A DNA stretch of 64,000 bases, from NCBI GenBank assembly GCA_964016885.1, contig OZ024741.1, positions 326,678,001 through 326,742,000 of the forward strand, in the 5' to 3' direction. A program made the position numbers and the translations under genes. This document shows positions 15,285 to 49,800 of this stretch, one piece after another; within the stretch, counting starts at the first letter, position 1; the number at the start of each line of letters is the position of its first letter. This stretch comes from Eledone cirrhosa (Eukaryota). The notes below the pieces were generated by a model, which was given only the letters and a program-made list of their open reading frames with translations, was not told where the DNA came from and made no database searches.

Positions 15285-15291
<7 letters not shown>

Positions 15292-23329: not shown

Positions 23330-23515
23330 TAATAATAATTATTATTTCTACATTAGGTACACAGCCAGCAATTTAAGGGGAGGAGGAGTCGATTAAATCG
23401 ACCCTGGTACTTGACTAGTACTTTATTTTATCGACCCCGTAACGATGAAAAGCAAAGCCAACCGCGGCGGGATTTGAACTCAAAACGTAAAGGGCCATAA
23501 CTCTATGCGGACAGT
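23330..23515 (-). mobile_element. Meta-domain-like tRNA SINE with (ATT)n tail
   Basis: gagttcaaatcccgccg..gcttttcatcgttacggggtcgataaaataaagtac..aattgctggctgtgtacctaatgtagaaat-(att)n; same family as 49660-49800. Confidence 0.75.
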
Positions 23516-23519
23516 ACGA

Positions 23520-24380
23520 TAGACAAGGACAGTGGATGGTTTACATATATAGCTAGAAAAAATATAAATAACAATAACAAAATAACAATAAAATGCAAAC
23601 AACGGATCTTCCCGAGAGAGGGGATAACTACACAGAGACGGCTCAGGTATCCCACCAATTCTCAACCAAGTCTGGCATATATACGTAGAGGTCGTAGGGC
23701 AGGCAATCCAAACCGACTAGGCATCCAGAATCTCGGTTGAAGTTATCGGGAATTCGCAGCGCTCAGCATTGGCTGGCGAGAGACGCGGTAGGCTATCGGG
23801 GTAGGGACTGAAATCAGCTATCGTCACTGGCCCTCCGCTCCCCCCGAACAGCTAGCGAAAGGCCTCACATATATGCCTGGAATCGTTCAGATTGCGTTCG
23901 TCTTGGTCCATCAATGACCAAATTGTGGTTTTGTAACCACGCTGCGCCTCAACCACACATGCCCATCGAACAGCTTTAGCTCCCTCGTTAATTAGAGCAC
24001 GCGTCTTAGCTCTGACAATGCACCCTTCATGTTTCGTATTGAAGAAATGGCCCAATGCTATTCTCCGCGCTAGCACGTCAGTTACAATGCCTCTACAAAT
24101 AGCCTCCTTTAATGTTAACTCCCAGTTCCCCTTGCTTTCTATTTTTCTCTAGCGCTATCGATTACTTTAATCTTTCTTTTGAGAGCCCCCAACCGTCTGT
24201 TTTTGCCTACCCCCTGTCAACGTTTGCTTAACTAAATTTTTGACTCTGTCTTTGTAAACTTTACGTGTTCAGCTTCCTGTAACCAGGTCCTAACCATACA
24301 GATGACAAACTTGTGATCTGAATATGCGACCGTTTGAAAGTGTGGCCAACCTATCCTATCCTTAACTGATCTACAATCCA
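23520..24380 (-). mobile_element. Old, internally deleted Tx1 relic (copy E-like)
   Basis: 23852-24076 reads HFFNTKHEGCIVRAK..; 23520-23665 resembles the copy E 3'UTR (ggacagtgg.tg.tttaca..ctcaggta..caccaat). Confidence 0.8.
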
Positions 24381-26789: not shown

Positions 26790-26915
26790 CATATCTACTG
26801 TTGAAAAATCTGGAGCAGCGTTAAATTAAGTCCTTTGCTCAAAGATACAACACATCACTAGGTCCGAGAATCGAAATCACAACCTCATGATTGTAAGCCC
26901 AATGCTCTCACTACT
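26790..26915 (-). mobile_element. tRNA-derived SINE (decayed)
   Basis: Minus strand agtgagagcattgggcttacaatcatgaggttgtgatttcgattctcgga..tctttgagcaaagg..gctgctccag. Confidence 0.6.
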
Positions 26916-26939
26916 ATTAACAACAATAATAATAATAAT

Positions 26940-29900
26940 GGTTTCTTTATTGGCCACAAGGGCTGACATCAATAAAAAACATCACAGACGGAACAGGACG
27001 GTACGGTGAGGGTTTTGTGCGTGTAAATATTTGTATTATTTATATAAGAAAAGAAAAAAAACATAAAACATATATAAATATAAACAATAAAATGAAAATT
27101 GAAACAATGAAAAATTCCCCAATAGGGGGGAAACCTCCGAGGGTTACTCGTGGCGAAAACCACACAAAAGACCACGGCCACCCCGACTACCAGGGCAAGC
27201 GCCCTCTCTCAATTTTTCCATCTCTCAAACTACAGACGCTCACCCCCCTTTCAACAAACTTGCTAGAAAGCAGCACTTGCCTCTCCACCCTGATAATCCT
27301 CTTGTGAAACTTGAAAAAGCTAATTAGGGATTCGCCGAAGAGGAAAGTGTTTGTCTTTAATCCTTTTAACCTTGTCCACCACACAATATCTTTCGCCATG
27401 GCCACCAGGCAGATGAAAACAACCTGCCCTTCCTCCTCGAAGGAAGACGGCGAGACCATCTGCACAATGGACTCAGTCGACAACCCGATCTGTCCCACAC
27501 GTGACAGCAACTGTTCGACATAGCTCCACAAGTCAGCAATGCTCGGGCACTGAACGAGTGCGTGCACAACGGTTTCGTCGCTATGCGCGCATCTCGGATA
27601 AGCTCGGCTGACGGCACTTCCATGCCTGTAGAGCTTATCTCGAACCGGCAGCGCCCCCGGTAGCACTGCCAGGCCAGGGATTTTTTGAAGTTATCCATAG
27701 GCCTCGGGCTGAAAGTTCTCCGGAAGAGAGCAAACATCTGATCTTCTTCGACGGCTAGGATCTCTCCGAGAATGTCGTCGCTCTTCCCCTCCACTAGTCC
27801 TCTATAGAACGCCGAGGTGGATGTTCCACCGATACTGGTGCCCAACTGGGAGAGGGCAGTGAGCGCCTGGAGACATTCCAATTTCCAAGCGCTATCCCTC
27901 GGTCCTTTTCTGACCCAGGACTGCAGCTCCGTCAAGGAGACGAGCTGTGGGAAAATGTGCCTGGCGAACGGCGACCACACCCGTTCACCATCAAGGAAGC
28001 ACCAGAGATGTCGCAGCCTCAGCGCATGTTTGCTCATCATCAGCCATGGCATGCCCAGTCCTCCACGCAACGGGTGTTGACAGCAGATGGATCGTCTGAC
28101 CATTGGAGCGCGTCCCTTCCACAAAAAGCGGAAGAGGAGGCGCTCCATTTTGGTGAGAGTTGGGCTGGAGCAAGGGACGACGGTGAGGCGGTAGCAGATG
28201 ACGGATGCGATGTACGCATTCGCCACTTCCGCCCGGCCTTTCAGGGACAGCTTCCTCTCAGCCCATTTCTGGGTGAGGGAGGCCACCCTGCTCGTCATCT
28301 CGTTCCAGTTTTTCTCCATCTGGAGGTCCGGTCCGAACCAGATCCCGAGCAATTTAACCGGTCCGTCCGTCCGACGCCCCACGACTCTGTCGGACGGCAT
28401 GGACTTGCCTCTCCAGGTGCCTAGCTGCAAGCCCACCGACTTTTCCTGGTTTATCTTTGCTCCTGTCACCGCTTCGTATTCCTTGAGAGCAGTGCCGAGC
28501 ATCTGGACGTGTCTGGTGCTCGACACCACCACAGTAACGTCGTCAGCGTAAGCCGACTCGAATTTCCCGTATCCTAGTTCGCGTGGGACGCCCCTCGTCG
28601 ACCCCAGTTTGTACAGTAACGTCTCGAGAGCCAATACGTACAAGAGGGACGAGAGAGGACAACCCTGGCGGACTCAGTGCATCATGCTGAACGGCTGCGA
28701 AAGGTGACCGTTCACCCTCACAACTGAGCAGATGTCGCTGTACATTGCTGCGATCCAACGCCTGAAAACGGGCCCGAAACCGGCTGCCTCGAGGACCGCC
28801 GCCAGGTACCGTTGGTCAACCCTATCGAATGCTTTGGATTGATCCAAGTTGATCAGGGCCCCACCTTTCCCAGGTTCCTTAACCACCCTTTCTATGATGT
28901 ATCGCATGAGGTGGAGGTTGTCGTGTATGGATCTGTCCGGAATGGCGCCTGTCTGCGCCTCTCCCACCAGACCCTTGACGACAAGCGCCAACCTCGTTGC
29001 TAACACCTTGGCCAAAATCTTGAACTCTGCGTTTAGCAGAGTTATGGGCCTGAAATTATCAATAATATCCCCCTTGTTCGGGTCTTTTCTCAGCAGCGCC
29101 ACTGCTCCCCGGCTCACAAAACTGGGAATGCTCCCGTTCTGCTGCCACTTGCAGTAGACGTCTGCCAAGAGGTCACTGAACAAGTCTGGCATAAATGCAT
29201 AAAGGTCGTAGGGCAGACCATCTAAACCTGGCGATTTACCTCTTGTGCAGTTAGCCATCGCTTCCCGTATTTCACCGGCTGTTATTGGCTTTTCGCAACA
29301 CTGTGCTGCGGTCGTCGAGAGCCGAGGCAAGCCGTCGAGGTATGCACTGAAGTCCATGCTCCTATCCGGGCCGCCCCCGCTCCCTAACAGTTCAGCAAAG
29401 TGCTGCTGAAAAGCTTCACATATCCGCTCGGGTTCGAGCATCACGCACCCGTTTTGGTCAGACAAAGACCGAATTGTGGCTTTGTTGCCACGTCACGCCT
29501 CTGCCACCCGGGCCCATTGGACGGCTTTTGTCCCCTCGTGATTCAGAGCGCGCGCTCTAGCTCTGACAACGCAGCCTTCGTGTTTTGCGTTGAAGAATTG
29601 GTCGAGTGCCAATCTCACCGCAAGCACGTCAGCTGCGATGCCTGTCCTAAACGCCTCTTCTAGCTTTCTGACTAGCTCTCCCTCTAATCTATTTTCCTCT
29701 ATCACTACTCCTTTGCTAAACCTAATCGACTCTACTTTAATTGCCCTTTTCAGGGCGAACCACCACCTGTTGTTGACGACCGCTCCCGTCAAAGCCCGCT
29801 TAACTAATACGCTAATCCGGTCTCTGTAGTTTGCCCGCCTGGAAAGACGCGTTCAGCTTCCAGTAACCAGGCCCTTGTCTATGAAGTCTGTCTATGTCGA

Positions 29901-32900
29901 TCTCACAGGTCACAAATCTGTGGTCTGTGTAGTCGACTATTTTAAATTGTGGACAACTTATACTAGCCTTATCTAGTTCCCTGCAGAATACCCTATCTAG
30001 ATACGATCTGGATGACCCCGATGCGGTTTGTCCATGTCCAGATTGGCACATTCGGGTCATCAAGTCGATACCTGTTAGACTGTTCAGAACGTCTGAGCAG
30101 GTTGGTGAGGCTCTTGCACCCTCCTCCCCTATCCACTAGCCCCACACGATCCCAGCGTGCATCCAAGATACCGTTCCAGTCGCCCACTAACACTAAAGAG
30201 CGGGACGTTCCAAGAAAGGTCTCTAGACGTCTGAAGAAATCTGGCCGTCCTTCCCCAGTTGGGGCGTAGACGGCTACTAGCCTGAAAGTATTGCCTTCGC
30301 TGCCGGTCACGTCCAGCACCACCGACTTACCTTCTGGGTCCAGGAAGATGGCCCGTATCGCGAGATCCAAGCCTCTCCGAAAAAGGACGGCAACGCCTCC
30401 CCCCGATCCTGGACGGCTGGGAGATGCGTATACATCGTAGCCGCCGAAGATTGGTGCGAAGGCCCGTGCCTCGGAGATTCTGGTTTCACTGATAGCCACC
30501 GCACCTATGTTTAGTGACCTGAGGTCATTGAGCAGGTGACCCTGCTTCCAAGATGACTCCAGGACACGTGCATTTATACTGCCTATTCTGAGTACAGCCA
30601 TGTTGGATGAGAAACGGGGCAAATGAGAGGAGTCACTTACCTTGTTCGTGTGATGAAGGGACAGTAGAACCGTCCCTTTCGCTGGTCATGGGTGTTTCCA
30701 AGAGGATGTCAGTGTATATCCTCTTGGTAACCGTCCCTCTGAAGTCTCCAACTGCGTTGGGGAATTTGTGTTTTAAAGGTTTGTACTGTTTGTACTATTG
30801 AGATTTCGATGATGCTTATGTTTGTCGGGAGAGTTCTTGGTGTTGGTGGGGTGTAGTAGTTTTTTTCCGTGATGTCTGTGTGCTGCTTTATATATTTTAT
30901 GAGTTCTTTTTTTGCTATGTTTATGGCTTTATACTTTTTTGGGGGAAGGGTGATTTTGTTGCCGTTTTCTTCTTGTTGCTGTTTGGTGTGTGTGTCTTGT
31001 TGTGTTTGTGTTGTTGGTGTTTGTGGTGGTGTTGCTGCAAGTTTCCTTGCTGCCTTTACCCCTCTTTGTATGCCTTCGCTTTTGGAGGGTGAATCTAAGG
31101 CTTTTTTTGTTTTTTGTTTTTTGTGGCAGACTGTTTGCCACGTCACTCCCGCCTCAAACACCATGTCGGATTCTGTGGCGTCTCGGAGGGGCATGTGCTC
31201 CACGGCTGCTGGTGGTGGTAGTGGAGCCCTCTTTGTCAATTTTGTTGCTGGTGTAGCTATTTCAAATGTAGCTATTGGTGTTGCCGCTACTGATGATGCT
31301 GCGTTAGTTAAACATGGCCTTGGTACGGGTGCTACGGACGTTGCCCTCCTACTCACCGTGGAAGGGGCTTCTTCGTTTGTTGCCTGTCCTGCTCTTGGTA
31401 GCATTGGACCAGGTATTGTAAGGAGAGGGGCCCTCTTCGGTGTCTTCTGCGGGCAAAAGGCCCTGAGGTGACCTTTCGACCCACAGAGATAACATTTTGG
31501 CAGTCTTCCTTCTACACTTATAGGGAGTTGGAGTCCTTCCTCAAAGTCTATGATATCGGGGATAGCCTCGATACATTCCTGGTCAGTTTGTATAAGCATT
31601 TGCATGCCTATACCTGACCAGTTCTCTCTCCCTATTTTTTCTACTTGCAGCTTGGTCGCCCTGTTCTCAATTCCAGCAAGGACAGACGTGGCCAGCCAAG
31701 GTATGGGCACGTCGTGTGATACCTGGGTCACTTTGACCCTCACAATTTTCTGCCCGCAGTAGGAGGGCACCAAGACTAACTCCTCACTCTTTAGGTTTCC
31801 AAAGAGTGGGACTTTGGGGTGTGGCTAAAAGTACGTCTACTGTGGCGTACTTTCTGCCTCGGGTGATGCGGGTTTTGCGTGCCCAGACGCACCCCAAGGC
31901 CTTTCAGATTTGAGCCTCCGTGGCTCTCTCCACTCGATGTGAGATTTTGCTTACGGTGCGATAAGTCACCGTCCGTAGCTACTGGTCCTTGAAAAAATCG
32001 GGTGGAGGTTTCAGGGAAACTCTATTTGCGCTTCTTGTCACCACGGCCCTTGCGACTGCCATCTCCTCCTCTGTGAGTAACACTGTCTCGATATTTTGGG
32101 CGACACCTGCAAAAGAAGTGGTCCCTTTTTCAACAGCACCACTATTGCTGCCGCTACTGGTCTTACTGGTGGTGCTGAGGTCGCTATTACAGCTTTCGGT
32201 GTCATTGTTGTTCTTTTCGCTGGTACAGTTGTTGGTGTTGTTTTCGTTGATACTGTTGCTGCTGTTACTGTTATTGTGGCTGTTGTTATTATTGTTGTTT
32301 TTGTTGATACTGTTCCTACTATTATTGTTGTTGTGACTGTTGTTATTGTCATTGTTATTGTCGTTCTCGACCTTACCGCTGTTATTTTTGTTATTGTCGT
32401 TCTGGACCTTACCGCTGTTATTTTTGTTATTGTCGTTCTCGACCTTACCGCTGTTATTTTTGTTATTGTCGTTCTCGACTTTACCGCTGTTATTTTTGAG
32501 TTGTTGTTGGTGATGTTGTTGGTGTTATTGTTGGTGTTATTGTTGGTGTTGTTTGTGTTAAAAATATTTGGTAATTTTAAATGTGTAACAATCTTTTTTT
32601 TCTTTGTAATATTTTCGTTTATATTTACCTCCGCTGGAAGCGTGTCTAGTTGACATGCTGATAAAGTCTCCCTCTCTCTGTGTTGTCTGACAGCGCTCTC
32701 TCTCTTTTTTGTGTTATCCATGTTGAAGTTTTTCAAAAAAAATATTTTTACACAAATACGAAAACGACACCCCGTAAAGGGCTAACGTATTATTTACTAG
32801 TGAACCCCTGTGTTAGGTGGGTCACTTCTTCTAAACTTTTATCAAATTTAAGACTTGAATAAAAGGTTTAGAACGGTTGAAATGAAGGTAAAACGTTGAA

Positions 32901-32934
32901 AAAAACTGGAGGCGAAAAGAAGCGTGGCTTCACC
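26940..32934 (-). mobile_element. Tx1-type retrotransposon, copy C (full length, disrupted)
   Basis: (AAT)n at both ends. ORF1 about 32721-30633 with CYLCGSKGHLRAFC; ORF2 from ATG 30601 (MAVLRIGSINAR, ISET, VGDWN, LDQSKAFD, AYADD, HALVQC); 3' end gcccttgtggccaataaagaaacc. Confidence 0.95.
32355..32497. repeat. 36-bp tandem repeat x4 in copy C ORF1 linker
   Basis: gttattgtcgttctcgaccttaccgctgttattttt repeated with period 36. Confidence 0.9.
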
Positions 32935-32967
32935 AACAATATTAATAATAATAATAATAATAATAAT

Positions 32968-33010
32968 TGTTTCTACTTTAGGCACAAGGCCAGCAATTAC
33001 CCAGTGCATT
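32968..33010 (-). mobile_element. 3'-terminal fragment of the Meta-like SINE embedded in (AAT)n
   Basis: Minus strand aatgcactgggtaattgctggccttgtgcctaaagtagaaaca matches 49752-49794 with 2 differences. Confidence 0.85.
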
Positions 33011-33036
33011 ATAATAATAATAATAATAATAATAAT

Positions 33037-36000
33037 GTTTTCTTTATTAACAACAAGGGTTTACATAAAGTAGACATTAAGGACAGTACAGGACAATACA
33101 GGACGGTACAAATGGGCATTTCTGCGTGTAAAAAAACAAAAACAGAGGATGTAACAAAAAAATAAACAATGAAAAATTCTCCAACAGGGGGGATACTTCC
33201 GAGGGACATTTGTGGAGAAAGCCCATTAAAAGGCCACAGTGACCCTGACCACCAGGGCAAGTGCCCTCTCCCAGTTTTCCACCTTTAATTTACAGACACA
33301 TACTCAAATATGCCCATTCACTCGGGCCATACTTGCTTCTCTCACCTATCTTTCAACAAAATGCTGGGAAGAGAGCACTTCCTTCTCTACCCTTATTTTC
33401 CTTTTCAAATAAAATTTGAAAAAGTTAATCAGGGCATCACCGAAGAGATAAGTGCTCGTCTTCAGCCCTTTCAAACGTGTCCACCATACTATCTCTTTCG
33501 CCATGGCCACCAGACAGATGAAAACTGCCTGCCCTTCCCGGCTAAAGGAAGAGGGCGGGGAAATCCTCACGATGACCTGCGCGCATCTCGGACATGCCCG
33601 GCTGACGGCACCTCCATGCCTGTAGAGTTTATCCCGAACTGGCAAAGCTCCTCGGTAGCACTGCCAGGCCAGAGATTTCTGGAAGTTGTCCATAGGCCCG
33701 GCCCGAATGTCCTTCCGAAGAGATTGGCTAGTTGATTTTCGTCTACGCCTAGAGTTTCTCCAAGTATGTCGTCGCTCTTCCCCTCCACTAATCTTCTATA
33801 GAACGCCATGGTGGAGGTTCCACCGATCACATTGCCCGATTGGTCGAGGGCTGTGAGCGACTGAAGACATTCCAGTCTCCAAGCGCTCCCTCTCGGTCTT
33901 CGGTTGACCCAGGACTGCAGCTCCGTCAAGGAGACGAGCTGGGGAAAGACGCGTCTAGCAAACGGCGACCACACCTGATCATATTCGAGTAATAGGTGGA
34001 GATGTCGTAGCCTGAGCGCCTGTCTGCGCATCATCAACCACGGCATGCCCAGCCCTCCACGTAGCGGTTGTTGACAGCAGATGGACCACCTGACCATCGG
34101 AGCGCGTCTCTTCCACAAAAAGCGAAAGAGCAAACGCTCCAGCGCAGTCAGGCGGGGCTTAGGACAAGGTACGACGGTCAGGCGGTAGTAGATGACGGAG
34201 GCGATGTAGGCGTTAGCCACCTCCGCTCGACCTTTCAGGGATAGCTTCCTCTCCGCCCATTTCTGGGTGAGAGAAGCCACCCTGCTCGTCACCTCGTCCC
34301 AGTTTTTGTCCGTCTAGAGGTTTCGACCGAACCAGACCCCTAGCAATTTAACCGGTCCGTCCGTCCAACGCCCGACGACGCTGTTGGACGGCATGGACAT
34401 GCCTCTCCAGGTGCCGAGCTGCAGGACCACTGACTTTACCTGGTTGATCATTGATCCTGTCACCGCTTCGTATTCTCTTAGTGTAGTGCCGATCGCCTCG
34501 ATGTGTTTGGCGTTGGACACCACTACGGTGACATCGTCCGCATATGCTGACACGGATCTTCCGCATCCTAGTTCGCGCGGGACCCCCTTCACCGTCTCCA
34601 GTTTGTGCAGTAATGGCTCGAGAGTCAATACGGACAAGAGGGACGAGAGCGGACATCCTTGGTGGACCGAGCGCATGATGTTGAACGGTTCCGAAAGGTG
34701 ACCGATCACTCTCACCAGAGAGCAGATGTCGCTGTGCATGGCAGCGATCCAGCCTCTCAAGACGGCCCCAAGGCTAGCCACCCTCAGGACTGCCGCTAGG
34801 TAACGATGGTCGACCCTATCGAAACTTTCAACTGATCTAAATTGATCAAGGACCCACCCGTGCTAGGTTCCCTAGCTACCCTCTCTACGATGTATCGCAT
34901 GAGGTGTAGGTTGTCGTGTATGGATCTGTGGGGAATGGCGCACGTCTACACCTCTCCCACCAGACCACCAACGACAAGCGCCAACCTCTTTGCTAGCATC
35001 TTGGCCAAAATCTTGAACTCTGTGTTTAGCGGAGTTCTGGGCCTGAAATTATCTATGATATCTCCCTTGTTCGGATCCTTTCTCGACAGCGCCACAGCTC
35101 CTCGGCTCACAGAGCTGGGAATACTCCCGTTCTGTTGCCAGTTGCAGTAGACGTCCGCCAAGAGGCCTCCGAACAAGTCTGGCGTCTGTACGTAAAGTTC
35201 ATAGGGAAGACCATCCAAACCAGGCGATTTACCCCTTGTGCAGCTAGTCATTGCCTCCCGTACTGCAGCGGCTGTTATCAGCTTTTCGCAACACTCCGCC
35301 TCAGTGGCCGATAGCCGCGACAGTCCGTTGTGGTAGACACTAGAGTCCATCCCTCGATCCGGCCCGCCGCTGCCCCCGAACAGCTGTGCGAAGTGTCGCT
35401 GAAAAGCTTCACTCACTTTCCCGGGATCGAGTAGCATGCGCCCGTCGTGTTCCACCAAAGACCGGATCGTGGCTTTTTTGCCACGACGCGCCTCCGCCAC
35501 TCGGGTCCATTGAACGGCTTTCGTCCCGTCGTGTCTCAGAGCACGATCACTAGCTCAGAGAACGCAGCCTTCGTGCTTTGCATTGAAGAATTGGTCAAGG
35601 GCCAATTTCGCCGCAAGTAAGTCGGTCGCGATGCCTTTGCAAAGCGCCTCGTCTAATTTTCTAACTAATTCCCCCTCTGCTCTATTTTTCTCTATTGCTA
35701 AAGCCTTACTAAACCTAATGGACTCTATTCTAATCGCTCTTTTCAGAGCAAACCACCACTTGTTGTTGGCGATGGCCCCTGTCAACGGCCGCTCAACTAG
35801 TTCGCTAATCCGGTCTCTGTAGGCCTTGCGCGCTGGTAAGGACGCGTTTAGCTTCCAGTAGCCGGGTCCTCGTCTATGAAGCCTATCTAAGTCAAGCACA
35901 CAGATCACGAATTTGTGGTCCGTGTAGCTGACTATTTTGAATTGTGGACAGCCTATGCTAGACCTATCTATTTCCCTACAAAATACTCTCTCTAGATATG

Positions 36001-38310
36001 ATTTGGATGACCCTATGCGATTTTTCCAAGTCCACATTGGCACATTCGCGAAATCCAATCGGTACCTGTTTGACAGTTCAAAACGCTTGAGCAGGTTGGT
36101 GAGGCTCTTGCACCCTCCTCCCCTATCCGCTAATCCCACACAGTCCCAACGTGCATCTAAGATCCCGTTCTAGTCGCCCACTAACACTAAAGCGCGGGAC
36201 GTTCCAAGAAAGGTCTCCAGACGCCGGGAGATATCAGGACGCCCTGCTCCTGTCGGCCACTAGCCTGAAAGCTTGCCCGTCTCCGCTGGTCACGTCCAGC
36301 ACTACCAACTTACCTTCTGGGTCCACGAAGATGGCCCGTATGGCGATATCCAAACCTCTCCGAAAAAGCAGGGCAACTCCACCCCCCAATTAGGACGGCT
36401 GGGAGATGCGTACACATCATAGCCGCCGAAGATCGGTGCGAAGGCCCGTGCTTCGGAGATTCTGGTCTCGCTGATGGCCACTACATCTATGTTTAGTGAC
36501 CTGAGGTCGTTGAGCAGTTGGCCCTGCTTCCATGACGACCCCAATCCACGCGCATTTATGCTGCCTATTCTGAGTGAGGTCATGTTGAAATGGAGTGGAA
36601 AAGATGGGAAAGACCACTTACCTTAGATGGTTTCTTCATCCCTTTTCACTTGATCGTCTGGTGAAGGGACCGTTGAATCGTCCCTTCGGCTGGCGTCGGC
36701 TCTTCTCTGAGTATATCCGAATATACTCTCCGGTTGAGTGTCCCTCCTAGGTCTCTGAAATCACCAACTGCGTTGGGTAATTTCATTTTAATGTTTGTGT
36801 ATTGTTTCTGTGATATTCTTACCAGTCTTATGTTCGTTGGTGTTTTGATTGGTGCTGGTATTATGTAGTTGTGCTGTGAAATGTCTGCGTGTTCAATTAT
36901 GTAAGTCATTAGTTTCTTGTTGTGTGTATTTATTGCTGTGCATTTCTTTTTCTGGCGGTGGGGTGTGGTTCTGCTATTTTCTTGTCGTTGTTGCTGGGTG
37001 TGTGTGTTTTGTTGTTGTGTTTGCGATGTTGGTGCTTGTGGTGGTGGTGTTGAAGGTGTTGTTGTTGTTGGCGGTGGGGTTGCCGCCGGTGGTTATGGTG
37101 GTGCTAGTGTGGGTGGTGATGGTGTTGGTGGTGTTGCTGCTGGAAGTCTCTTTGCAGTAACCTTTACCCTTTTTTCATTTCTTCCTGCGCTGCTTCTGCG
37201 TTTGTGCCTTCTTGCGACCTTTTGCCATCCCTCTCCCATCTCACACTCCATGTCCTATTCTGTGAGGTCGGGGAGTATACCAGCTCCAATCTTTCACTTG
37301 TTCTTGTTGGTTATGGTTGCAGTGGAGTCTTTGTTGCAGCTGCAGTTGGTATTACTGTTGTTGTTGTTAATACTTCCACTGCTGCTGTTGTTCTTGATTT
37401 TCGTGGCGTGGGTTTGGGTGCCACGGACCTATCCTTCCTGCTTGCCGCCTGTCCTGTTGCTGGCAGCAGTGGAGCCGGTTTCGGAAGGAGGGGGCTTTTC
37501 TCCTTTCTCAGGGTCTTCTCATTGCAGAAGGCCCTGAGGTGAGTCTTCGACCCACAGTGAAAGCATTTCGGGCGTTTGTCCTCAACACTTATGGGAAGTT
37601 GAGTGCCGTTATCGAAGTCCATCATATACGAGATAGCTTCGATGCACTCCTGGTTGGTTTGAATTAACATCTCAATGGAGCTGCCGACCCAATCTTCTCG
37701 TACTTTTTTCTGTACTTGCAGTAGAGTTGTTTTGTCCTCGATTCCGACGAGGAAAGACGCGGCTAGACAAGAAGGGGCCATCCGGGCATGTGTGTGTGTG
37801 TGGGGGGGGGGGGGGGGTCAGTTTGACCCTCACACTTTTTTGCCCGCAGTAAGAGGGCACCAACACCATTTCCTCGCTCGTTAGGGTCACTAAGGATTGA
37901 GTCTTTGCCTCCTGGGCTGTGGCAAAAAGCACGTCCACGGTGGCATATTTCTTGCCTCGGGTGATAAGCGTTTTCCGCTGCCACACAGACCCTAAGGCTT
38001 TTTGTATTTGAGCCTCTGTGGCCCTTTCAACCCTACGTGATTTGGTGCTTATTGTACGGTACGTGACCGTACAGTGCTGTTGGGTTTCGAAAAATGTTTC
38101 GACTGTCGTGCAGATTGCTCGGTGTCCGGTTTTCGTCACCACCTCCTTTGCTTCCTGTAATTTCTCATTTGTTTTAAGGATGGTTTCCAGGTTCTTTGCG
38201 ATACCTGCAAACGAGATTGGTTTTTCTTTCTTGTTGTTGCTGTTGTTATCGTCAGAGCTGCTGTTACTTTTGTTGTTGCTGCTGGTATTATGACCACCGC
38301 CGCCGCTGTG

Positions 38311-38344
<34 letters not shown>

Positions 38345-38947
38345 CTGTTTCTCCTGCTGCTGTTGTTGTTTATGCTGTTGCTGGTGATGTTGCGGCTGCT
38401 ACTAGTAATTTCCTTGTCACTGTTGCTGCTGTTATTACGGCTGCTGCTATTCTTCATGACGTCAGACGAATGAAATGGCTTTCCGTATTTACCGCACACA
38501 TTTTTCGTCGTTGTCGTCGTCGTGGAGAAATGTTCGACGGTATGCACGTTCTCTTGGTGAAAGCTACCAGAAGCTATCTTTTTCTTTTTCTTTAATCGCG
38601 CCGCTTGCGAAAGCGGCGACACCACATTTAGAGAAGGGAGGGAGAGAGACATTCTTCTCTCTGCTGTAATGACGATTGAGGAAGAAGAAGACGGAAAGAG
38701 TGTGAGTGACTTGTGAAAATTCTTTTTTGTAGCCATGTTTTTTTTTTTACGGTTTAAAATGAATATTGGGCACAAAACGCCAATAAGCGGTTATTTAACA
38801 CCGAAGGGCCAAATAACGGACAGAAAGACCCCTCTCATGAGGAAGGGGGTGTTTATCTACAATTTGGTTTTAAACGATTTACAATTGTTATGGCGGTTAA
38901 AAGTTACTATACCTTATAGAGCCGAGCCTCTGTCAACCATGGCATTC
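33037..38947 (-). mobile_element. Tx1-type retrotransposon, copy D (full length, disrupted)
   Basis: (AAT)n flanks. ORF1 from about 38736 with CFHCGSKTHLRAFC; ORF2 36583-33290 and 3'UTR very close to copies A and B. Confidence 0.95.
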
Positions 38948-38983
<36 letters not shown>

Positions 38984-38985
<2 letters not shown>

Positions 38986-41900
38986 TTTCATTTATTAGCC
39001 ACAAGGGCCGACATGTAGGGGACAATACAAAGACAGGGACAGTGGGTGTTTACAATAAAGTCGAGTAAAAGTGCACAATGGCAGGACTAATTTTATAATG
39101 GAGATATAAAAATATAAAATAAACTATGCATAAATATAACAAGATAAATTCCCCTCTAGGAGGTGGATGACCCAGGTGTGACTCAGGTACCTCACCAATC
39201 CTGAACCACCCTGCGCTTCTAGGGCACCCAGGGAGAGCACCCCTCTCCTCAAGTTAGCTAGCCTATAGGCGCATGGTCAGAGTGGGCCCATTCACACGAG
39301 CCATTCTCGCCACATTCATCCACCTGGGGGAGGGGGGACAGCACTTCCCTCTCCACCCTCACCTTCCTTTCCAGATGAAACTTGAAGAAGTTGATGAGAG
39401 ATTGGCCGAAGTGAAACGTCTGTCTTCAGTCCTTTTAATCTGGTCCATCATATAACCTCTTTCGCAACGGCCACCAGATAGAGGAAAATTTTCCCCTCTT
39501 CCTGACCTAAGGAAGGCGGCGGATCCATCTTCACTATGGACTCGGCGATAGCCGGATCCGTTCCACACGCGACAGTAGCTGATCGACATAACTTCGCGGG
39601 TGAGTAATGCACTGACATTGGACAAGTGCGTGCAGCACGGTTTTGTCGCTCTGTGCGTATCTTGGGCACGTCCGTCTGACAACACCTCCGTGCCTGTAGA
39701 GTTTATCCCGAACCGACAGAGCCCCCCCCCCCCGGTAGCACTGCCAAGCAATGGATTTTTGGAAATTGTCCATCGTCCCCGGCTCGAAAGTCCTCCTGTA
39801 CAGACTGGTCAGTTCGACTTCGTCGAGGCCCAAAGCTTCTCCGAGTGCGTCATCGCACTTGCCCGCCACTAATCCTCTATAGAATTCGAGAGTGGAAGTT
39901 CCACTGATCGCATTGCCCGCTTGGTAGAGGGCAGTGAGTGCCTGGCAACATTCCAGGTGCCAGTCATCCAGACTCGGTCTCTTCTTGACCCAGGATTGCA
40001 GCTCAGTCAAAGAAACGAGCTGCGGAAAGGCCCGTCTGATAAACGGCGACCACACTGTTCACCGCTTAGGCAAAATATCTTGAGATGTCACAGCCTCAGC
40101 GCATCTCTGCGCATTATTAGCCACGGCATGCCCAGCCCTCCGTGTAGAGGGTGCTGGCAGCAGATGGACCGCCTCACCAACGGAACTTGTCCTTTCCACA
40201 AGAATTTAAGAGGAGCCGTTCCAACTTGACGAGGCGCGGACCTGGGAAAAGCACGACGGTCAGGCTGTAGTATATGACGGACGCGATGTACGCATTCGCC
40301 AACTCTGCGCGACATTTCAGTGATAGCTTCCTCCCAGCCCATTTTTGGGTGAGACTGGCTACTCTGCTCGTTACCTCGTCCCAATTCTTTTCCACCTAGA
40401 GGTCTGGTCCGAATCAAACCCCGAGCAACTATACCGGTCCGTCCGTCCAGCGCCCCACGACGCTGTTTGACGGCATAGGCTTGCCTCTCCTGGTTCCGAG
40501 CTGCAAGTCCACCGACTTTTCCGGGTTAAGTTTGGCTCCTGTCAACCTTTCATATTCTTTCAATAAGGTGCCGACCACCTCGATTTCTGAGGTGTCCGAC
40601 TTTCCACGTCCCGGTCCGAGTGGGATGCCCTGCAACAGCTCCAGCTTCCGCAGTAAAGGCCCGAGAGTCAATACGTACAGAAGGGAAGATGAGGGCACCC
40701 TTGACGGACCGACCGGGAGAGCAGAAATGGTTCCGAGAGGTGGCCATTAACCCTGACCACCGAGTGTGTGCCGCTGTGCATTGCAGCGATCCAGCTTCTG
40801 AAGACAGGGCCGAAGCCAGGTGCTTTGAGGACAAACTCCAGATACCGATGGTCGACCCTATCGAATGCTTTCGATCGATCTAAATTTTTCAGTGCCCTAC
40901 CGAAGCCAGGTTTACACCCTACCTTTTCTATGATGTATCGCATGAGGTGGAGATTGTCGTGTATGGACCTGGCTGGGATTGCACAAGTTTGCGCCTCCCC
41001 AACCAAATTCTCGACGACAAGCGCCAATCTCTTTGCTAACACTTTGGCCAAAATCTTAAACTCTGTGTTGAGCAGAGTTATGGGCCTGAAGTTGTCTAAT
41101 GTATCCCTCTTGTTCTCGTCTTTCCTTATCAGCGTCACCACTCCCCTGCTCACAGAACTGGTTATACTTCCATTCTGCTGCCAGTTGCAATAGAGTGCTT
41201 CGAGGAGATCGGAAAACAAGTCTTACGTAAACATATAGGGCAGGCCATCCAAACCGGGTAACTTGCGCCTCATGCAGCCGACAAGGGCGTCCTGAATTTC
41301 GGCTGAAGTAATCGGCATTTCGCAGCCCTCAGCCTCGACCGTCGAGATGCGCGGCAAGCCGTCGAGTTAGGGACTCAAATCCGCTACTCTCTCTGACTCG
41401 CCACTCTCCCCGAACAACCGACCAAAGTGCTGGCGAAAGGTCTCACACATCCACTTGGAATCGCTTATCTCGTGTCCGTCACGGTACGCCAAAGACCGAA
41501 TTGTGGTTTTATTACCACGGTGCGTCTCCGCCACGCGGGCCCACCGATCAGCTTTGGTTCTCTCGTTTCTCAGCGCACGCGCCTTAGCTCTGACAATGCA
41601 ACCTTCGTGTTTCGCATTGAAGAAATGGTCTAACGCCATTCTCGCCGCTAGCACGTCAGTTGCAATTCCACAACAAATAGCCTCGGTTACTTATCTACCA
41701 GCTCTCCCTCTTTTCTATTTTTCTCTAACGCTAGTTCTTTGCTGAACTCTCTTTTGAGAGCCTCCTTACCATATGTGTTGGTGATCTCCCTTGTCAACTT
41801 TTGCTTAACTAGATTGTTGACTCGGTCCCTGTAAGCCTTACGTGCCGGAAAGACATGTTCAGCTTTCAGTAACCCGGTCCCAACCTACGCGTTTTATCTC

Positions 41901-44828
41901 GGTCGACCATACAGATCACAAATTTGTGATCTGAATAGGCGACCGTTTTAAAAATGGGCAGCCTACAATATTTCTATCTATTTTCCTATTGAAGATGCTG
42001 TCTATATACGATCTAGATGATCCTATGCGGTTGGTCCACGGCCACACAGGTGCATTGGGGAAATCTAATCGATGCCCTGTCAGACAGTTGGAACTGGCTG
42101 ATTAGGTGTTTGAGGCTTTTGAACCCCCGCTCCTATCAGCTACTCCCACACAATCCCAGCGTCCGTTAAGATGCCGTTCCAGTCCACCGCTAACAGTAGA
42201 GGGCGATACGTACCCAGAAAGGTTTCCAGGCGCCTAAAGAAGTCCGGTCGTCTGGCCCCAGTAAGGACGTAGACGGCCAGCAGTCTAAAGGCACCACCTT
42301 CGCTACTGCTCACATCCAGGACCACCAACTTCCCGTCAGGGTCCCGAAAGATCGACCTTACCTTGAGATCCAGACCTTTCCTAAACAGCACTGCCACCCC
42401 ACCTCCCATTCCTTGCCTGCTAACATATGCGAATATCTGATAGTCGTCGAAAATGGGGACTAGTGCGCGCGTGTCGGAAATCCTAGTCTCGCTGACGGCA
42501 ATCACATCCATTTCCAGAGACCTGAGGTCGTTGAGTAGGCGACCCTGCTTCCAGGTTGACTCCATGCCGTGAACATTTAAACTTCCTACTCTTAATATGG
42601 CCATGTTGGCAAGCTAAAAGAGAGAGGGAAGATTTACTTACCTCTCGGGGTCTTGTGAAGGTCGGGTGGTTCGACCTTCATGTTTATTGGGGTTTATTTG
42701 GGGAACCTCTTTAAAAGTCTTGATGTGGGTTTCACGTTCGGGGGTCTCACGTCTTGAAGAAAGCTCTCTCGAATTTCTTTGTAGGAATTGAGTAACATTC
42801 GCACCAGAAGAAAATCTTCTGGCACGCAAAATGTGTTCAATTCTAAGTTCTCCCCCCCTGTTTGGATGTCCTCGTTTCGTGCTAAGAGGGCCATCAATTT
42901 ATCGTTGGCCCTTCTGACAAGCACGAAGTTTTTAATGTTTTGTTTGTGTGGTTATATTTGTTTTCGTTTTGGTGACTGTGGTGGTGATGGTTTTGGTGGT
43001 GTTGTTTCGGGTATGTCTGTGTTTGTTGTAGGTGTGGTGTCTGCAATTTCAGGTGTCTGTGTGTTTATTTCTTCTTGTGATTGTTTAGGTTGTTTGCGTT
43101 TCGGGGATTCTGTGGGGTGGTGTTGATGTTGATGTTGGAGTTATTGGGGAAGTGTTTGCGTTAGTCGTGTCTGTATTTTTGTTGTGTACGTTTTTGCGTT
43201 TTGTTGGGGCTTTTTCTCGGTGATTTTTCTCTTTAGATTTTTGGCACTTTTTGGTTTTCCTTCATCTTCACTGCTGGAAGACAAAGGGTCGGTAGCTGTG
43301 AGTGTATATGTGTCTGTCTGTGCATTTATTGTTTGTCTATGTGTATAATTGGAGTGGTAGGGAGAGCTTTCCTCGTTTTTCCCTTGGATTGGTTTCGGTG
43401 CTGGTGGTGGTCCGACTGTTTTTGATGTTGGTGGGGTTACCCGTCTCATTGTTGGTGTTGTTTTGGGTGGTGGTAGTGGTGCAGCATTCCGTGCTGACAC
43501 TGGTGTTGGCAACGAAGGAGGTTTGCGACCCTGCATTTTTGAGCTGAGGGCAGAAGGCTTGCAAATTCGTTGCTTCCCCGCAGACGAAGCAGTGCGGCCG
43601 TCATCCCTCAGCGATTAATTGGATTGTTGTCCCGTCCTGCAGGCGAGCAAAATCCGGTATGTCGTTGATGTCCTCTCTGGGTTTATTTGGAGAGAAATCT
43701 CCAAATCCATTCCGGACCAGTCTTCTCTATCTTCCCTTTTGATATCCAGGAGGGTAGTGTCTGACCCTCCTGGATTACGCATCCCAGGAGCCACCATATG
43801 TTCATTCCTGGTGGGATCCTGGGAATGCGGACCTTTACTGTCCTTTTGCCCATGTAGGACGGGTGCATGATAATGCGTTCCGTTCTGCAGGGGGTCACCG
43901 AGTGCTTAATAGCAAGGGCCTCGGTTTTGAACAGTACCGAGATGGTACCAAACTGCTTGGCCCTTCCTTTATACTCTATGTCACTTCCGATGCACTTCAA
44001 AGTAGCCTCAACCTCTGCTTGGCTGGCAAGTTCCACTGTGCGTGTCTGCACTGAAATGCATCGAAAGTACACCCTCCTCCTTTACATGGCCGTTATTGCC
44101 CCGTCTGGGATGGTCAGGTTTGCTAGGACATCTCCCATTTAATTAACCTCCACGCCTGGGCCAACTGTTCGTCTTTATCGCTAATCTCAACATTCAATTA
44201 GCGCTTTGTTTTCGCTGCTGCCACTGCAAAGGTGGTGCCTCTGTTGCTCTTCTTGTTGGTGTTATCGTTCTTGCGGTTGTTGTTGGTGTTGCTGTTGTTG
44301 TTTTGTTTGTTGTTGCTGTTGCCACCGCCAACCGTGTTTATATTGAGGCTGTCGCTGTTATTGTCGTTGTTGTTCTGAGTTGTTGTTGTTGCTGTTGTGG
44401 TGGGGGTGGTGATGTCGTTTTGAGATGATACTGCTACTATCACAGAAGGGAGCGGTTGTGATGGTAACTTTTGTGTTTTGCCTTCAAATTCAGTGGAATG
44501 GTCGACAGGCATGTCTGTAGTAGTAGTAGTTGTGGTGTATCTACAGTGGCTGTTTTTGAACTTTTGACCTGAACGTTGTTTACCGTTTCAAGGTCGAAAA
44601 TTTCCATATTTCTTTTTTGGTGAGGAAGCGATTTTTCGAAGTTTTTAAAAATAAATCTGAATGTTCGGGCTTAAAGCCCGAATATTGAGAGGTCTCCCCC
44701 TAGGAGCCAAGGTGTATACCTTATGCTTCATTAACCACAAGAAAATACAAAAAAATGATACTTTAAAACAGCTTAAAGTTACGAAGCTTTCCCCCCGAAG
44801 ACTTGTACGTCTTCATACATGTGCGTCC
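38984..44828 (-). mobile_element. Tx1-type retrotransposon, copy E (divergent family, more decayed)
   Basis: (AAT)n flanks. ORF1 about 44607-42638 (TFAVAAAK, CFVCGEA..LQAFC); ORF2 from ATG 42604 MAILRVGSLNVHG; 3' end ggcccttgtggctaataaatgaaatc. Confidence 0.93.
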
Positions 44829-44832
44829 AATA

Positions 44833-44863
<31 letters not shown>

Positions 44864-44865
<2 letters not shown>

Positions 44866-45015
44866 TAGTCCAGTCCCGCTTCAAAAGGCATGCTTTCTGG
44901 GAACAGCAAAAACCCTCCGATACTTCCTGAATATTTGAGGCTGCAGGTAGCGGCTTGATATTCATTTCAACAAATTTTCCAGTTAAATAACATCAATGAC
45001 TGAGACTCAAAGAAC
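44864..45015 (+). mobile_element. 5'-truncated R4/Dong-like 3' end
   Basis: ISPVPLQKACFLGTAKTLRYFLNI* (44864-44938), short 3'UTR, (AAT)n on both sides. Confidence 0.75.
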
Positions 45016-45057
<42 letters not shown>

Positions 45058-45094
45058 CGGGGACTATTAATATTCCTAGATCAAATCTCTTATT

Positions 45095-45331: not shown

Positions 45332-48125
45332 CGTTGACAAATATATCAATATGCCTCTACATATAGATATATTGCCCTTGGTATGACAGTGTGGTTTTAG
45401 CTCAACGTAGGATAACTAATATATTACAGAGCCGTTATAATTATAGGAATAACCAAAGAGTGCTTAGAAATACATTGTTTTGTTAGCTATCAGTGTTTCA
45501 TCCTTACACAATGGCAGGAATCTTCAGAGCTTATAAACATGGTATATCAGTAGTTGCATTCTCCATCGAGCTGCGTCACCAGAACAAGGTTAAATGACCA
45601 GCAAGGGGGTCCAGATACTAGCGCTATATGGAAAAAGACATACTACATGATGCAGATAGTGTCAGAAAATTTCTTTAAAATTTCAAAAATTAAAAATTAA
45701 AAATTAAAAGTTACACCAAAACTGTATCACTTATATGGTGCAATAGATGATAAAGAGGTTGGGAAAGGGTAGCAAGGGATGATAGACTTAAGAATACTAC
45801 ATTCCTAGCGAGTTACATATCCCTCCTGAAGAACACTGATATTCAATACACGCTTGGCAGGAGAATAATCACTAAATCATCACAGTATAGACCCCCTAAC
45901 ATAATCTGTGACCTTTGTCTCTCTGAATCACACGCCATAATACAATCTAAACTGAACCTGCTAAATAGGAAGTCGGAGATATTCTCTTCTTGCCCGCACA
46001 TAAATCTTAGCTCCTTCTATTATTTTAAACCAATTAGCTAACGATGTAGGACCTGCATACATCCGTCCTGTCGGGCCACGTAAAACCACGCCGCACTGCA
46101 TCCTGGCTTTGTGATGATAACTGCCCCTCAGGTGCATATAGACTACTCTAATACATCTTCTCCTCTCCCCCTCTCTTGTTCTTCGCCCTCTCTTCCTAGA
46201 TACTCTTATTGGACCACAGGCCAAGAGCCCTGGGGTGGAATCCACGTAAGTCCTCTCGCTATACCTAGCACAGCATGACCCTATATATGCGCTTACCCAC
46301 ACTAACCATGTTGGTATGTTTTTAAACACACCCATTGTGCGTTAACTAATAGCACAGCACTATAGTCTTTCGAAAGCCCCGAAAACCCCGCCGCAGCTAT
46401 AAAGCGGGTGAATTGTGTATTCGGGTATAGTTAACCTTAACCCTAGAGTATGTAATAGATCTAACCTAGTATAGTGAACTATGGTAGCAAGTCGTGTGGG
46501 CTGGATGCCGCCAAATCGACCTAGCCCTAGGGGGAAGGGGAGGTTGATTACCGAGGGCTTCGAACCAAACAAAAAACCCGCCCCTAGCACCCCGTTGGAT
46601 ATCAAATGAATCCGTCCTTTTTGACGCGAATTGCCTCCCATACCTTTCATACGTAAACTACGACTTCCTGTGTTTATATTCAGAATACTGCCGTGTGTCA
46701 ATGGCGTGATACGAATCTTTGAAACTTGGAGTTAGTTCTACGAGAATTCTGTTCCAGCTTTGATAAACTATTGAACCACACTCAAGGCAACGTGCAGCAC
46801 TGGGTATTGAACTCCCTCTGACCAGGAGGAGTCACACCCGACTGTGAATGAATTGCACACTTCGGAATTAATAATCTAAATGAAAACCACGTGGCGGAAA
46901 TATAAATAACTTGGCTATAATAAAGGGATTTGATTGTGAGTTGTCCCTTCTATATATATATATCCTACAGAAACTTGCACTCAACATAATAAACCCGCCT
47001 ATTATTATAACAATATATGCTCATTCTGCCATATGTGATTCTGGAAGCTGAGTTTGCTGTGTGCACTTTTATCTGTGTGTGACTGGATTGGCATCACGGT
47101 TTGTATTTGCTGTGGTACAGTTCTATGCGGTGCGATACATTGGCTGAACACCAACTTGGACATACATCGAATTTCACCTGGCACGTTGGATTAAGAGACG
47201 GAATGTTTTCCATTTCCTCACACCTGTGTCGGCTGTATATGTGCCATACATTTCTTTAACTCGTCGTACCTTCTTTCTCTTATTTTATTTTTTTGTTGCA
47301 GATTTTAGGTGTATATCCCAGACCGCATATGGTGATAAGTCCCCTGCCTCTAGGTTTTGAAAAATAATGTTATGTCAATTGGAGTTCTGAACTGGAACAT
47401 ATCGATGTGGTTCGTAGGGTGCGGATATGATAAGGAGAATCGACCTATTACAGGGCGATTTACTTGGAGTACACCATCACCTATATGGACTATTATACAT
47501 GTAAGGCTGCATTACTGCTAACCAACAACTCTTTTCACAGACTCATGCTTGCAAACTCTCTTGATCTGCCTGTACATCCCCCTATGCACTGCTTGTGCTT
47601 AGATGCATCCATGCTTTTTGTTCATTAATTGTTTTGTATTTTTGTATTTATCTCTCTTCTTATCCCTGTAATTTTGTACCTTTTTATTGTCTTTTTGTTA
47701 TTTTCCTGTATTTTCTTGTATTTTCTGATTGTTTCTGATCATGCTGAGTAATACCCTCAATCATCCCTTGCTACCCTTTCCCAACCTCTTTATCATCTAT
47801 TGCACCATATAAGTGATACATTTTTGGTGTAACTTGTAATTTTTAATTTTTAATTTTTGAAATTGTGCATTGTGTGCATCATGTATTATGTCATCATGTA
47901 TTATGTGCACTATGTGCATCATGTATTATGTCTTTTTCCATATAGCGCTAGCATCTGGACCCCACTGCTGGTCATTTAACCTTGTTCTGGTGACGCAGCT
48001 CGATGGAGCATGCAACTACTGATATACTCATGTTTATAAGCTATGAAGATTCCTGCCATAGTGTAAGGATGAAACACTGTTAGCTAATAAAACTATGTAT
48101 TTAAAAGCAATCTTTGGTTATTCCT

Positions 48126-48212: not shown

Positions 48213-49659
48213 TAGTAGTAGTAGCAGAAATAAAAAAAAAGTCTGAGCGAGAAAGAAATGGACAGTATAAGAAAGTGTGTAAAAGAAAGAGAACAAAGCT
48301 GGAAGTTTTTTTTTTCAGTTTGCTACACAAGTCCGATGAGCAGATTGATGCAAGAGTCGGGTCTATAACACAAATAGGGATCTTGAGAAATCATCTGTGA
48401 ATGGTACGTTACTAGTCGATACCTAATAAAAAACACTAATGTCAAACATAGACCTGTTATATTTCATTCATACCCTGTGTCTTACTATTGAGTACGACCT
48501 ATTTTGGTACCACCTTCACTAAAACACAAAATCCATGAAAATATTGAGTAAACCAATGTATATATACACACACAATGGTATATTGTCATGGTTGATAAAT
48601 GGTTCTGGAGGAAAATATTATTTTAGAGCGTCGTGTTGTGTTAGAGTGATTAAAGCTTCAACAATTTAATATTAACTATTTTTCTGTATTTGGTTATATT
48701 GTAAAGTTGGCAAATTAGTAGAATCTTTAGCATGACGGATATATTTTATTCGTTTTAGAATCTGTACCCCGAGATGAACTTTCTACTGAAACCAATACTG
48801 TTTCTGTCATCATTTTTTTCTCTCTTATTCTTTGCTCCCCATCTTCTTCCTTCCTCCCCTTCGTCCTTCTATTCCTTCTCTTTCTTCTCTCTGCCTTTCA
48901 CTTTCTCTCTGGAAGAAATTAGTTGTGTTAAAAACTGGATTGGGAGTTATATTAGCTCTATTACGTCTAAAAATGCCGAAGACACATCGTATATTTCAAA
49001 GTCGAAAAATGTGTTGCATATTACAATACATTTCTGGAGAGCTAAGAAATTACTAATTAGTAATATACTCTATGGACACCATAAGAGCAAGTATCTGTAC
49101 AGGCACAAGTAGTTTCAATCTGTTGACCTTCTGAACGCCATACTGGCTCATGATGGTAGGCTACGCAAGTACTCATTGTAAAAATATGGCAACAGAAGAG
49201 TACAGATGGTTATATATATCTAAAGACATTCCATCATATTTTTATGTAAACCAGCTCAATAAGAAGACAGTTAGTTATATTATTCAATCCAGTAAATGTC
49301 CCGGTTGTTTTGTGAATTATGTTAAACTCCCTAGTAGTGACATTCATTAGAAGCGTTTAAATATTTATATTTCTTTAGAAAAAAATTTCAATCTTAATTT
49401 CATGTAAGAATCTGTTAAACTATATTCCAAACATCAGCTTAATAGTTTTCGATTATTTTCACACTCATTTGAAGACCTTAGGCAGCATCTTTCATTAGAA
49501 ATATGGTAACGAAAGCTGTGATAAATATTAATAGATATATTGTCGATTATGTCAAGATTCACAATGTATTTCATTAATTTATTCAAACGAAACGCAACAT
49601 ATTCAGTACTTCTATTTTCATATTATATTATCTGTCTTTGGACACCATGCTTTGAAGCA

Positions 49660-49800
49660 TAGAGTTACGTCCCTTTATGATCTGAGTTCAAATCCCGCCG
49701 AGGTTAACTTTGCCTTTCATCCTTACGGGGTCGATTAAATAAAGTACCAGTAATGTACTGGATAATTGCTGGCCTTGTGCCTAAAGTAGAAACAATTATC
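49660..49800 (+). mobile_element. Meta-domain-like tRNA SINE
   Basis: gagttcaaatcccgccgagg..gcctttcatccttacggggtcgattaaataaagtaccag..ggccttgtgcctaaagtagaaacaattat. Confidence 0.8.

Follow-up and report, generated by a model that had tools for sequence, protein, structure and literature searches.

The 64,000-nucleotide stretch of the Eledone cirrhosa genome analysed here (the window) holds five related long interspersed nuclear elements (LINEs) of the L1/Tx1 group, A to E, which likely belong to a Tx1-like lineage with a preference for (ATT)n microsatellites. Every visible end of these elements (9/9; the 3' end of A and both ends of B, C, D and E) adjoins an (ATT)n tract in the sense of the element, and poly(A) is present at none of them (0/9). 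Both observations had been made in the original prediction, a first reading of the sequence alone, and both hold. A and B are located on the plus strand and C, D and E all on the minus strand, where C-D-E span positions 26925–44865 of a window that is AT-rich, eukaryotic and full of (TA)n. The elements and the tracts around them are listed below (ORF, open reading frame; APE, apurinic/apyrimidinic endonuclease; RT, reverse transcriptase; SINE, short interspersed nuclear element).

1–3135, plus: element A, L1/Tx1-group LINE from the C-terminus of the ORF2 endonuclease to the 3' end, with RVT_1; 5' part beyond the window
3136–3157, plus: (ATT)7 tract, tail of A; for the inverted Dong-like fragment it forms the 3' (TAA) tail side
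3158–3385, minus: candidate Dong/R4-type LINE 3' end, 5'-truncated, with (AAT)n on either side and a C-terminal peptide of 27 amino acids
3386–3447, plus: (ATT)~20 tract 5' of B
3448–8522, plus: element B; ORF1 ATG at 3662, GGTAAGT at 5378, ORF2 ATG at 5417, AATAAA at 8511; internal deletions
8523–8602, plus: (ATT)17 tail of B, second 12-nt element end (8576–8587) and (ATT)5
26925–26939, minus: (ATT)5 tail of C
26940–32934, minus: element C; ORF1 ATG at 32721 (weak CCHC knuckle), GGTAAGT at 30641, ORF2 ATG at 30601 (APE, RT, zinc finger)
32935–32967, minus: (ATT)n tract 5' of C, imperfect where it meets the element and doubling as the tail of the SINE fragment
32968–33010, minus: SINE 3' end, 43 bp, 95% identical to the copy at 49752–49794
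33011–33036, minus: (ATT)8 tail of D
33037–38947, minus: element D; ORF1 ATG at 38736, GGTAAGT at 36622, ORF2 ATG at 36583; ORF2 type of A and B with another 5' module
38948–38983, minus: (ATT)12 tract common to the 3' end of E and the 5' end of D, the sole direct head-to-tail junction
38984–44828, minus: element E, the most decayed; ORF1 ATG at 44607, GGTAAGT at 42642, ORF2 ATG at 42604
44829–44865, minus: (ATT)11 tract 5' of E; neither a Tx1 nor a SINE 3' end lies upstream of it
44866–45015, plus: second Dong-like 3' end, 5'-truncated, with a peptide similar to that of the A-B fragment
45016–45057, plus: (AAT)14 tail of the second Dong-like fragment

(ATT)n at the element ends

The 3' ends of A-E follow one pattern, in which AATAAA is followed by 6–7 nt and then by ATT beginning on A. 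The 5' junctions read TT followed by G, as described earlier, and the tract at C is imperfect (..ATTAATATTGTT|GGTG). As a background, at least four in-sense ATT units within the preceding 25 nt were required, and such a tract lies just upstream of 327 of 76,048 non-element positions (0.43%, both strands). The 14 tract rows merge into 12 window tracts, eight of which touch an end of A-E.

The ATT could be a templated tail only, with loose insertion at AT-rich sites and the window as a local hotspot of tails, Dong insertions and deletions. We consider this quite improbable. Three of the four 5' tracts can be read as the tail of another element, the old copy F described below has no 5' tract, and, as four read sets contain the family in abundance, an occasional odd cluster is to be expected (the matches in read runs X2 and X3 make up a small share and support no claim). 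However, the abutment at the four 5' junctions is exact against a background of 0.43%, and no such element lies in two further (AAT)n tracts (61472 and 61641) or in many (TA)n tracts of the window. Furthermore, neither a Tx1 nor a SINE end lies upstream of the 5' tract of E, and the ATT at this junction is therefore more than a tail. Each of B, C, D and E has a 5'-junction tract whatever insertion order is assumed. Once copy F is counted, an ATT flank is present at four of the five visible 5' ends in the window, and the ATT thus cannot be a tail alone.

Element anatomy and phylogenetic placement

Pieces of C match the Pfam families Exo_endo_phos, RVT_1 and zf-RVT, which places an N-terminal APE, an RT and a C-terminal zinc finger in ORF2. 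A CCHC zinc knuckle in ORF1 is a feature of the Tx1 clade of the L1 group. The zf-CCHC match in ORF1 of C is under the curated cut-off (E 0.0064), and that of an intact ORF1 from the sister lineage described below is over it (E 5e-5). A profile of 17 relatives matched human L1 ORF2p at 1e-116 versus R2 at 1e-37. Stops and frameshifts are found in the ORF2 of all five elements, and B carries internal deletions.

A protein search returned P0001 (73%), followed by a group at 38–49% and then mostly by matches at ~25–35%. A quick RT tree was built from 65 rows, with B omitted and X used to read across the breaks in the window rows. A, C, D, E and P0001 make up one clade in it with support 100, which joins the elements of the sister lineage, from record G001, in a 25-row clade, one row of which is an unreliable long branch. 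This clade stands apart from the elements flanked by (CT)n, 5S or U2, with the deep nodes open, and the (CT)n-flanked elements form a separate 7-row clade, also with support 100. The anchors were picked by their flanks and are not named Repbase entries (U2, L126; 5S, L005, L120 and L121; (CT)n, L006, L008 and L009).

A perfect splice-donor-like GGTAAGT is located 31–33 nt upstream of the ORF2 ATG in 4/4 window elements (5378 on the plus strand; 30641, 36622 and 42642 on the minus strand). The same motif lies 6 nt upstream of the ORF2 ATG in all 15 motif-found G001 starts (L128–L162), and as such it is missing in 12/12 more distant elements examined. It could be a source of ORF1-only mRNA or a binding site for U1. 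B and D are without ~110 bp of the C-terminal zinc finger present in A (around 8000 in B and at 33574 in D), and 23,079 reads of run X7 go on with other letters at the break in D. A shared defective source and gene conversion are candidate explanations for this common gap.

Separate insertions and array growth

C-D-E and A-B had been described as head-to-tail arrays. The common orientation stands, but only E and D are joined by a single tract (38948–38983). The D-C gap contains 43 bp of a SINE 3' end and the A-B gap the 228-bp inverted Dong-like fragment, in both cases with tracts on either side of the inserted fragment.

The ORF2 of A, B and D are of one type (91–98% nucleotide identity). Despite this shared type, B and D are only 35–63% alike in the 5' untranslated region (UTR) and ORF1, and C and E differ throughout. 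The 5' modules of B, C, D and E are only 35–70% alike in aligned windows, so these elements are not duplications of one copy, and tandem duplication was rejected for the window because the modules are too unlike. The combination of one ORF2 type with unrelated 5'UTR/ORF1 modules is seen in B (3448–5400) and D (36600–38947), and many such modules are also found in G001. Comparison of these sequences points to repeated exchange of 5' modules among the elements.

The number of breaks per 100 codons, counted against P0001, was 1.81 in E, 0.96 in B, 0.69 in D, 0.45 in C and 0.44 in A. E (16 breaks) is more decayed than C (4 breaks; p=0.007), and the comparison of E with D gave p=0.053. E was therefore the first of C-D-E to insert, and decay gives no finer order than this. 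The different 5' modules and the different decay of E and C show separate insertion events, and the predicted growth of the arrays by serial insertion is thus borne out within the window. This is also consistent with re-insertion of the R1 type, of which both features are present, a copy of the target between neighbours (the E-D tract) and units from separate insertions.

It is very improbable that the arrays arose in one event, either through unequal crossover or through a switch of the RT, at the 5' end of one RNA, to the AUU tail of a second RNA. The direct E-D junction, an extra 12-nt element end inside the tail of B and the near-identical long arrays in G001 would fit such an origin. Neither process, however, accounts for the own 5' tract of E; array neighbours are of different subfamilies, and E is more decayed than C. 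The 12-nt end has D-type letters and lies at 8576–8587 inside the ATT tail of B, where reverse transcription may have restarted or a tiny insertion may have followed later.

The elements had also been called full length. The 5'UTR and ORF1 are indeed present in B-E, but the ORF2s are all broken, B is deleted in part and F is truncated. In run X4 the summed contig depth falls from 718,185 near the 3' end of D to 504,241 where ORF2 starts and to 33,543–58,542 within the 5' module; summed depth is no copy number, and subfamily-specific 5' modules account for part of the fall. Such a steep fall toward the 5' ends does not favour copies that are mostly full length.

A sister lineage that builds arrays without ATT

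An alignment-based search of genomes placed 41 of the 47 loci in a single record, G001, which is titled as a bacterial metagenome-assembled genome (MAG). Its contigs C3–C15 and C17–C19 (L128–L162) hold hundreds of kb of animal-like DNA with young, intact LINE arrays, and the flanks are microsatellite-rich, have 22–42% GC and look eukaryotic. This DNA is likely host contamination of the bin. The record gave 88 protein matches, and most of the top ones are intact ORF2s in same-strand runs ~6.4–6.8 kb apart; on contig C9 about a dozen element copies lie in a row. The ORF2 identity between the window elements and this lineage is 42–45%, and it is the closest to them among the relatives whose DNA was compared.

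All 55 motif-found 3' ends in G001 (35 stretches) are followed by a short non-ATT spacer, each typical of its own array, with ATT at 0/55 and poly(A) at 0/55. The end types that were not caught by the 3' motif likewise had no ATT. The spacers are unique sequences of ~11–18 nt, and one two-copy array has a near-identical 18-mer at either outer end. Since the sister lineage builds arrays without ATT, array-building is a trait of the lineage as a whole; the same holds for the terminal AATAAA without poly(A), and ATT is a feature of the branch of the window. The proposed '(ATT)n-specific group' is therefore too wide.

No dispersed-repeat target was found at the ends of the G001 arrays, as four of the five 3' flanks used as queries matched only themselves or other element copies; one such matching flank, on contig C18, is probably the head of another element. 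Neither an Rfam match nor a tRNA that could indicate an RNA-gene target was found in the window, and none in the 11 G001 loci scanned. A search of viral contigs for related loci confirmed 0/43 candidates, and a metagenome search returned 80 loci, all 23–38% identical to the query and none of the window's lineage.

More distant Tx1-like elements were also seen beside other targets. In another MAG (L126, 4952–6541) such an element is followed by a U2 gene without its 5' part, beside U1 and 5S genes, an arrangement that is Keno-like. A U2-derived stretch is located just upstream of ORF1 in the Tx1-like elements of L002 (701–817) and L003 (554–716), which resembles the U2-headed families noted in PMC4758252. 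Contigs with Tx1-like elements end in (ATTG)9 or a TTG-rich repeat in L014 (4174–4214) and L011 (5882–5897), and these repeats are possible further microsatellite targets.

A SINE with the 3' end of the LINEs

A SINE in the window carries the 3' end of the LINEs together with an ATT tail. Besides the 43-bp end between D and C, the following features belong to it and to the old LINE copy F:

23328–23508, minus: SINE copy joined to the 3'UTR of F, with an imperfect ATT tail
23509–24339, minus: copy F, old, 72% to E, without its 5' part and with an internal deletion; no ATT at the 5' end
49657–49799, plus: SINE copy with a short ATTAT tail; its last ~25 nt match the 3' end of the Tx1 elements

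The last ~25 nt of the SINE align with the LINE ends, including GAAA(C)-ATT. Among sampled window 24-mers at most 0.03% score as well as the SINE-LINE match for A-D, and 0.7% for E. The shared 3' end can be drawn as a hairpin with a five-base loop, of which the closing stem is GGC/GCC in the SINE and G001, GCC/GGC in C and E, and ACC/GGT in A and B. In 15 distinct rows 82.7% of the cells are paired and three of the five pairs show double changes, although the structure was drawn from these same related sequences. Shuffles did as well in 0/500 cases on three measures, and in 88/500 and 270/500 on the other two. The shared hairpin is a lead and not a proof. Scans for patterns of the SINE end and the LINE end gave 31 and 1 matches in genome contigs and 1 in viral contigs; the lone matches in prokaryotic and viral records were taken as chance.

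In the stretch 23328–24339 (minus strand) the 3'UTR of F is fused to the SINE at a short common CCCTT stretch; deletion in a further LINE-tract-SINE array may have left this arrangement.

Dong-like fragments in the same tracts

The 228-bp inverted fragment between A and B has a counterpart in a comparable 150-bp fragment upstream of E. The peptides of the two resemble each other, a resemblance reached in 0/5000 shuffles, and match fragments in G001 near RT pieces (E 0.003–0.005). Neither fragment had a Pfam match, and the G001 relative had no match to a solved structure. From a sequence motif, we take the two to be 5'-truncated ends of Dong/R4 LINEs, and this type is likely. Dong is an R4-clade element with a restriction-like endonuclease. 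Only these two fragments fit the orientation of Dong, with (TAA)n in the sense of the element, whereas A-E carry an APE and in-sense ATT.

How the insertion site may be chosen

On balance we think it probable that these now decayed L1/Tx1-group LINEs inserted singly into (ATT)n, at sites set partly by a loose nickase and partly by pairing of the tail. Transcription would pass the AATAAA, 6–7 nt from the end, into the tract and give an RNA ending in (AUU)n. The endonuclease would nick T/A steps, AAT/AAT on the bottom strand and ATT/ATT on the top strand, a pattern that fits the phase seen at every junction. Once nicked, the (AAT)n strand would pair with the AUU tail and prime reverse transcription, with any poly(A) skipped. 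A tract would be left on either side after insertion and could be reused by the next element, which would give arrays of mixed subfamilies. The SINE would likely be mobilised by the same LINE enzyme, and Dong-like LINEs would use the same tracts from the opposite strand. The general steps have precedent. Double insertion gives tandems where the target is preserved (10.1101/158386), and pairing of read-through RNA raises insertion of R2Ol from 12% to 96–98% (PMC6530143). The ATT tail probably acts both as a target guide and as a templated tail; the choice between the two posed by the original prediction is thus likely a false one.

Strict specificity of the endonuclease, in which the APE itself would recognise (AAT)n, as has been proposed for Kibi and Koshi, and the tail would only copy the target, is a less likely explanation. 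The junctions are in phase at 9/9 ends. In D and E the hairpin segment of the endonuclease is 8 residues long, compared with 10–12 in 12 of the 13 pattern-matched relatives (15 tested). This hairpin loop is known to alter nicking (PMC1950540), and enzyme-based specificity therefore stays a rival. However, a segment of 8 residues is also present in the relative P0002, and human L1 falls two residues short of the profile here. Furthermore, the sister lineage combines near-identical enzymes with unrelated junction sequences. Eight G001 subfamilies have endonucleases that are 90–96% identical and eight unrelated spacers, and the site is therefore likely chosen partly by pairing of the RNA 3' end.

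A broader form of such pairing is conceivable, although we regard it as doubtful. The lineage as a whole would be guided by its own read-through 3' end, with a terminal poly(A) signal and an RNA carrying 10–30 nt of downstream flank that pairs with the nicked DNA and directs new copies to sites that match. The G001 branch would keep unique spacers and self-renewing arrays, and the window branch would have captured (ATT)n, so that an entire class of microsatellite became its target, and would drive an abundant SINE through the shared 3' hairpin. If this is true, target choice would be inherited through RNA and could change without a change of the enzyme.

Several observations weigh against insertion guided to (ATT)n as outlined above. 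In copy F, which is truncated and old, the 5' flank is not ATT. Nor can the four 5' flanks with ATT be counted as independent of the array geometry, as that of D is the tail of E, that of C the tail of the SINE and that of B possibly the tail of A. The targeting evidence comes from one window, chosen for showing the pattern, and (ATT)n targeting therefore rests on that window; the published measure of target preference in Tx1 is one sequence type in >20% of flanks genome-wide (PMC4494074). Decay gives no age order for D versus C (p=0.54) or B versus A (p=0.24), and the long near-identical G001 arrays could come from unequal crossover. The three tailed SINE copies are all 5'-incomplete, with ATT upstream in the 43-bp copy only. 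The proposed 3' hairpin is the minimum-energy fold in only two of five sequences, and the window copies do no better than shuffles.

Other repeats in the window

A mariner-type transposase fragment is located at 13156–13788 on the plus strand (HTH_48, E 2.8e-6). Broken RT-like frames at 16960–19400 (plus) had no Pfam match; by their motifs they presumably resemble a Penelope-type element. Another repeat has copies at 8608–9000, 11978–12369, 15280–15778 and 16499–16601, two of which form an inverted pair, back to back, and one copy starts directly after the tail of B. A long inverted repeat pair (45580–45830 and 47750–48120), found by eye around a 2-kb stretch, is possibly a DNA transposon.

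Relation to known systems

The known targets of Tx1 elements include U2, Tx1D, (TC)n, (TTC)n, (TTCC)n, (TTTC)n and Mariner and Harbinger elements (PMC4494074), and telomeres (PMC10088271). Kibi at (TC)n, Koshi at (TTC)n and the crocodilian families at (TTCC)n/(TTTC)n (PMC4494074, PMC3812793) resemble the window elements in being APE-RT LINEs of the L1/Tx1 group with microsatellite at either end. Unlike Kibi and Koshi, the window elements have (ATT)n at all tracts and do not group with the (CT)n-flanked L006, L008 and L009. As they fall outside that clade, (ATT)n would be an independent acquisition.

Dong of silkworm, mosquito and snail (DongBg) targets (TAA)n according to a review, which lists TAA for Dong only and places Dong with the APE types (PMC3812793). 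The duplex repeat is the same, and the two Dong-like fragments share the window tracts. Dong, however, has its TAA tail in the sense of the element, the opposite orientation, whereas A-E encode an N-terminal APE. The arrays resemble the R1 tandems (10.1101/158386), in which the target is kept or copied and later copies land head to tail. Unlike those tandems, the units are joined by a simple repeat whose length varies, and different subfamilies, a SINE and another LINE clade occur together in the array. With the G001 lineage the window elements have in common head-to-tail arrays, absence of poly(A), the terminal AATAAA, the 3' motif, GGTAAGT before ORF2 and one ORF2 with many 5' modules, whereas the G001 copies are young and intact and have unique non-ATT spacers.

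LINE1-1_ZM with ZmSINE2/3 is a stringent pair of the L1 clade, and only three SINEs with L1-clade tails were found in that study (PMC3472496). As in that pair, which has a small covarying hairpin, the SINE of the window has the last nucleotides of the LINE. Unlike the pairs of that study that were compared, which are from plants or algae, the window pair is animal and Tx1-like and has an ATT tail. An annotation of Octopus vulgaris describes 13 recently active L1-Tx1 families, and the word 'target' is never used in the available part of its text (PMC13282606). No Tx1 element targeting (ATT)n and no cephalopod SINE with a Tx1 partner was found in the literature searched; Repbase was not compared, and prior annotation is possible. 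Microsatellite-targeting Tx1 elements and re-insertion arrays are already known, and our results suggest that (ATT)n is a new target for a known kind of element.

With (ATT)n, APE-type Tx1 elements would have a further target, acquired independently of Kibi and Koshi, and two LINE clades and a SINE would be shown to use a single microsatellite from opposite strands. The difference from the sister lineage makes the respective shares of the endonuclease and of RNA-DNA pairing in LINE site choice testable. If the link to the SINE holds, it names the engine of an abundant SINE and provides, for the L1 group, a case of stringent 3' recognition from an animal.

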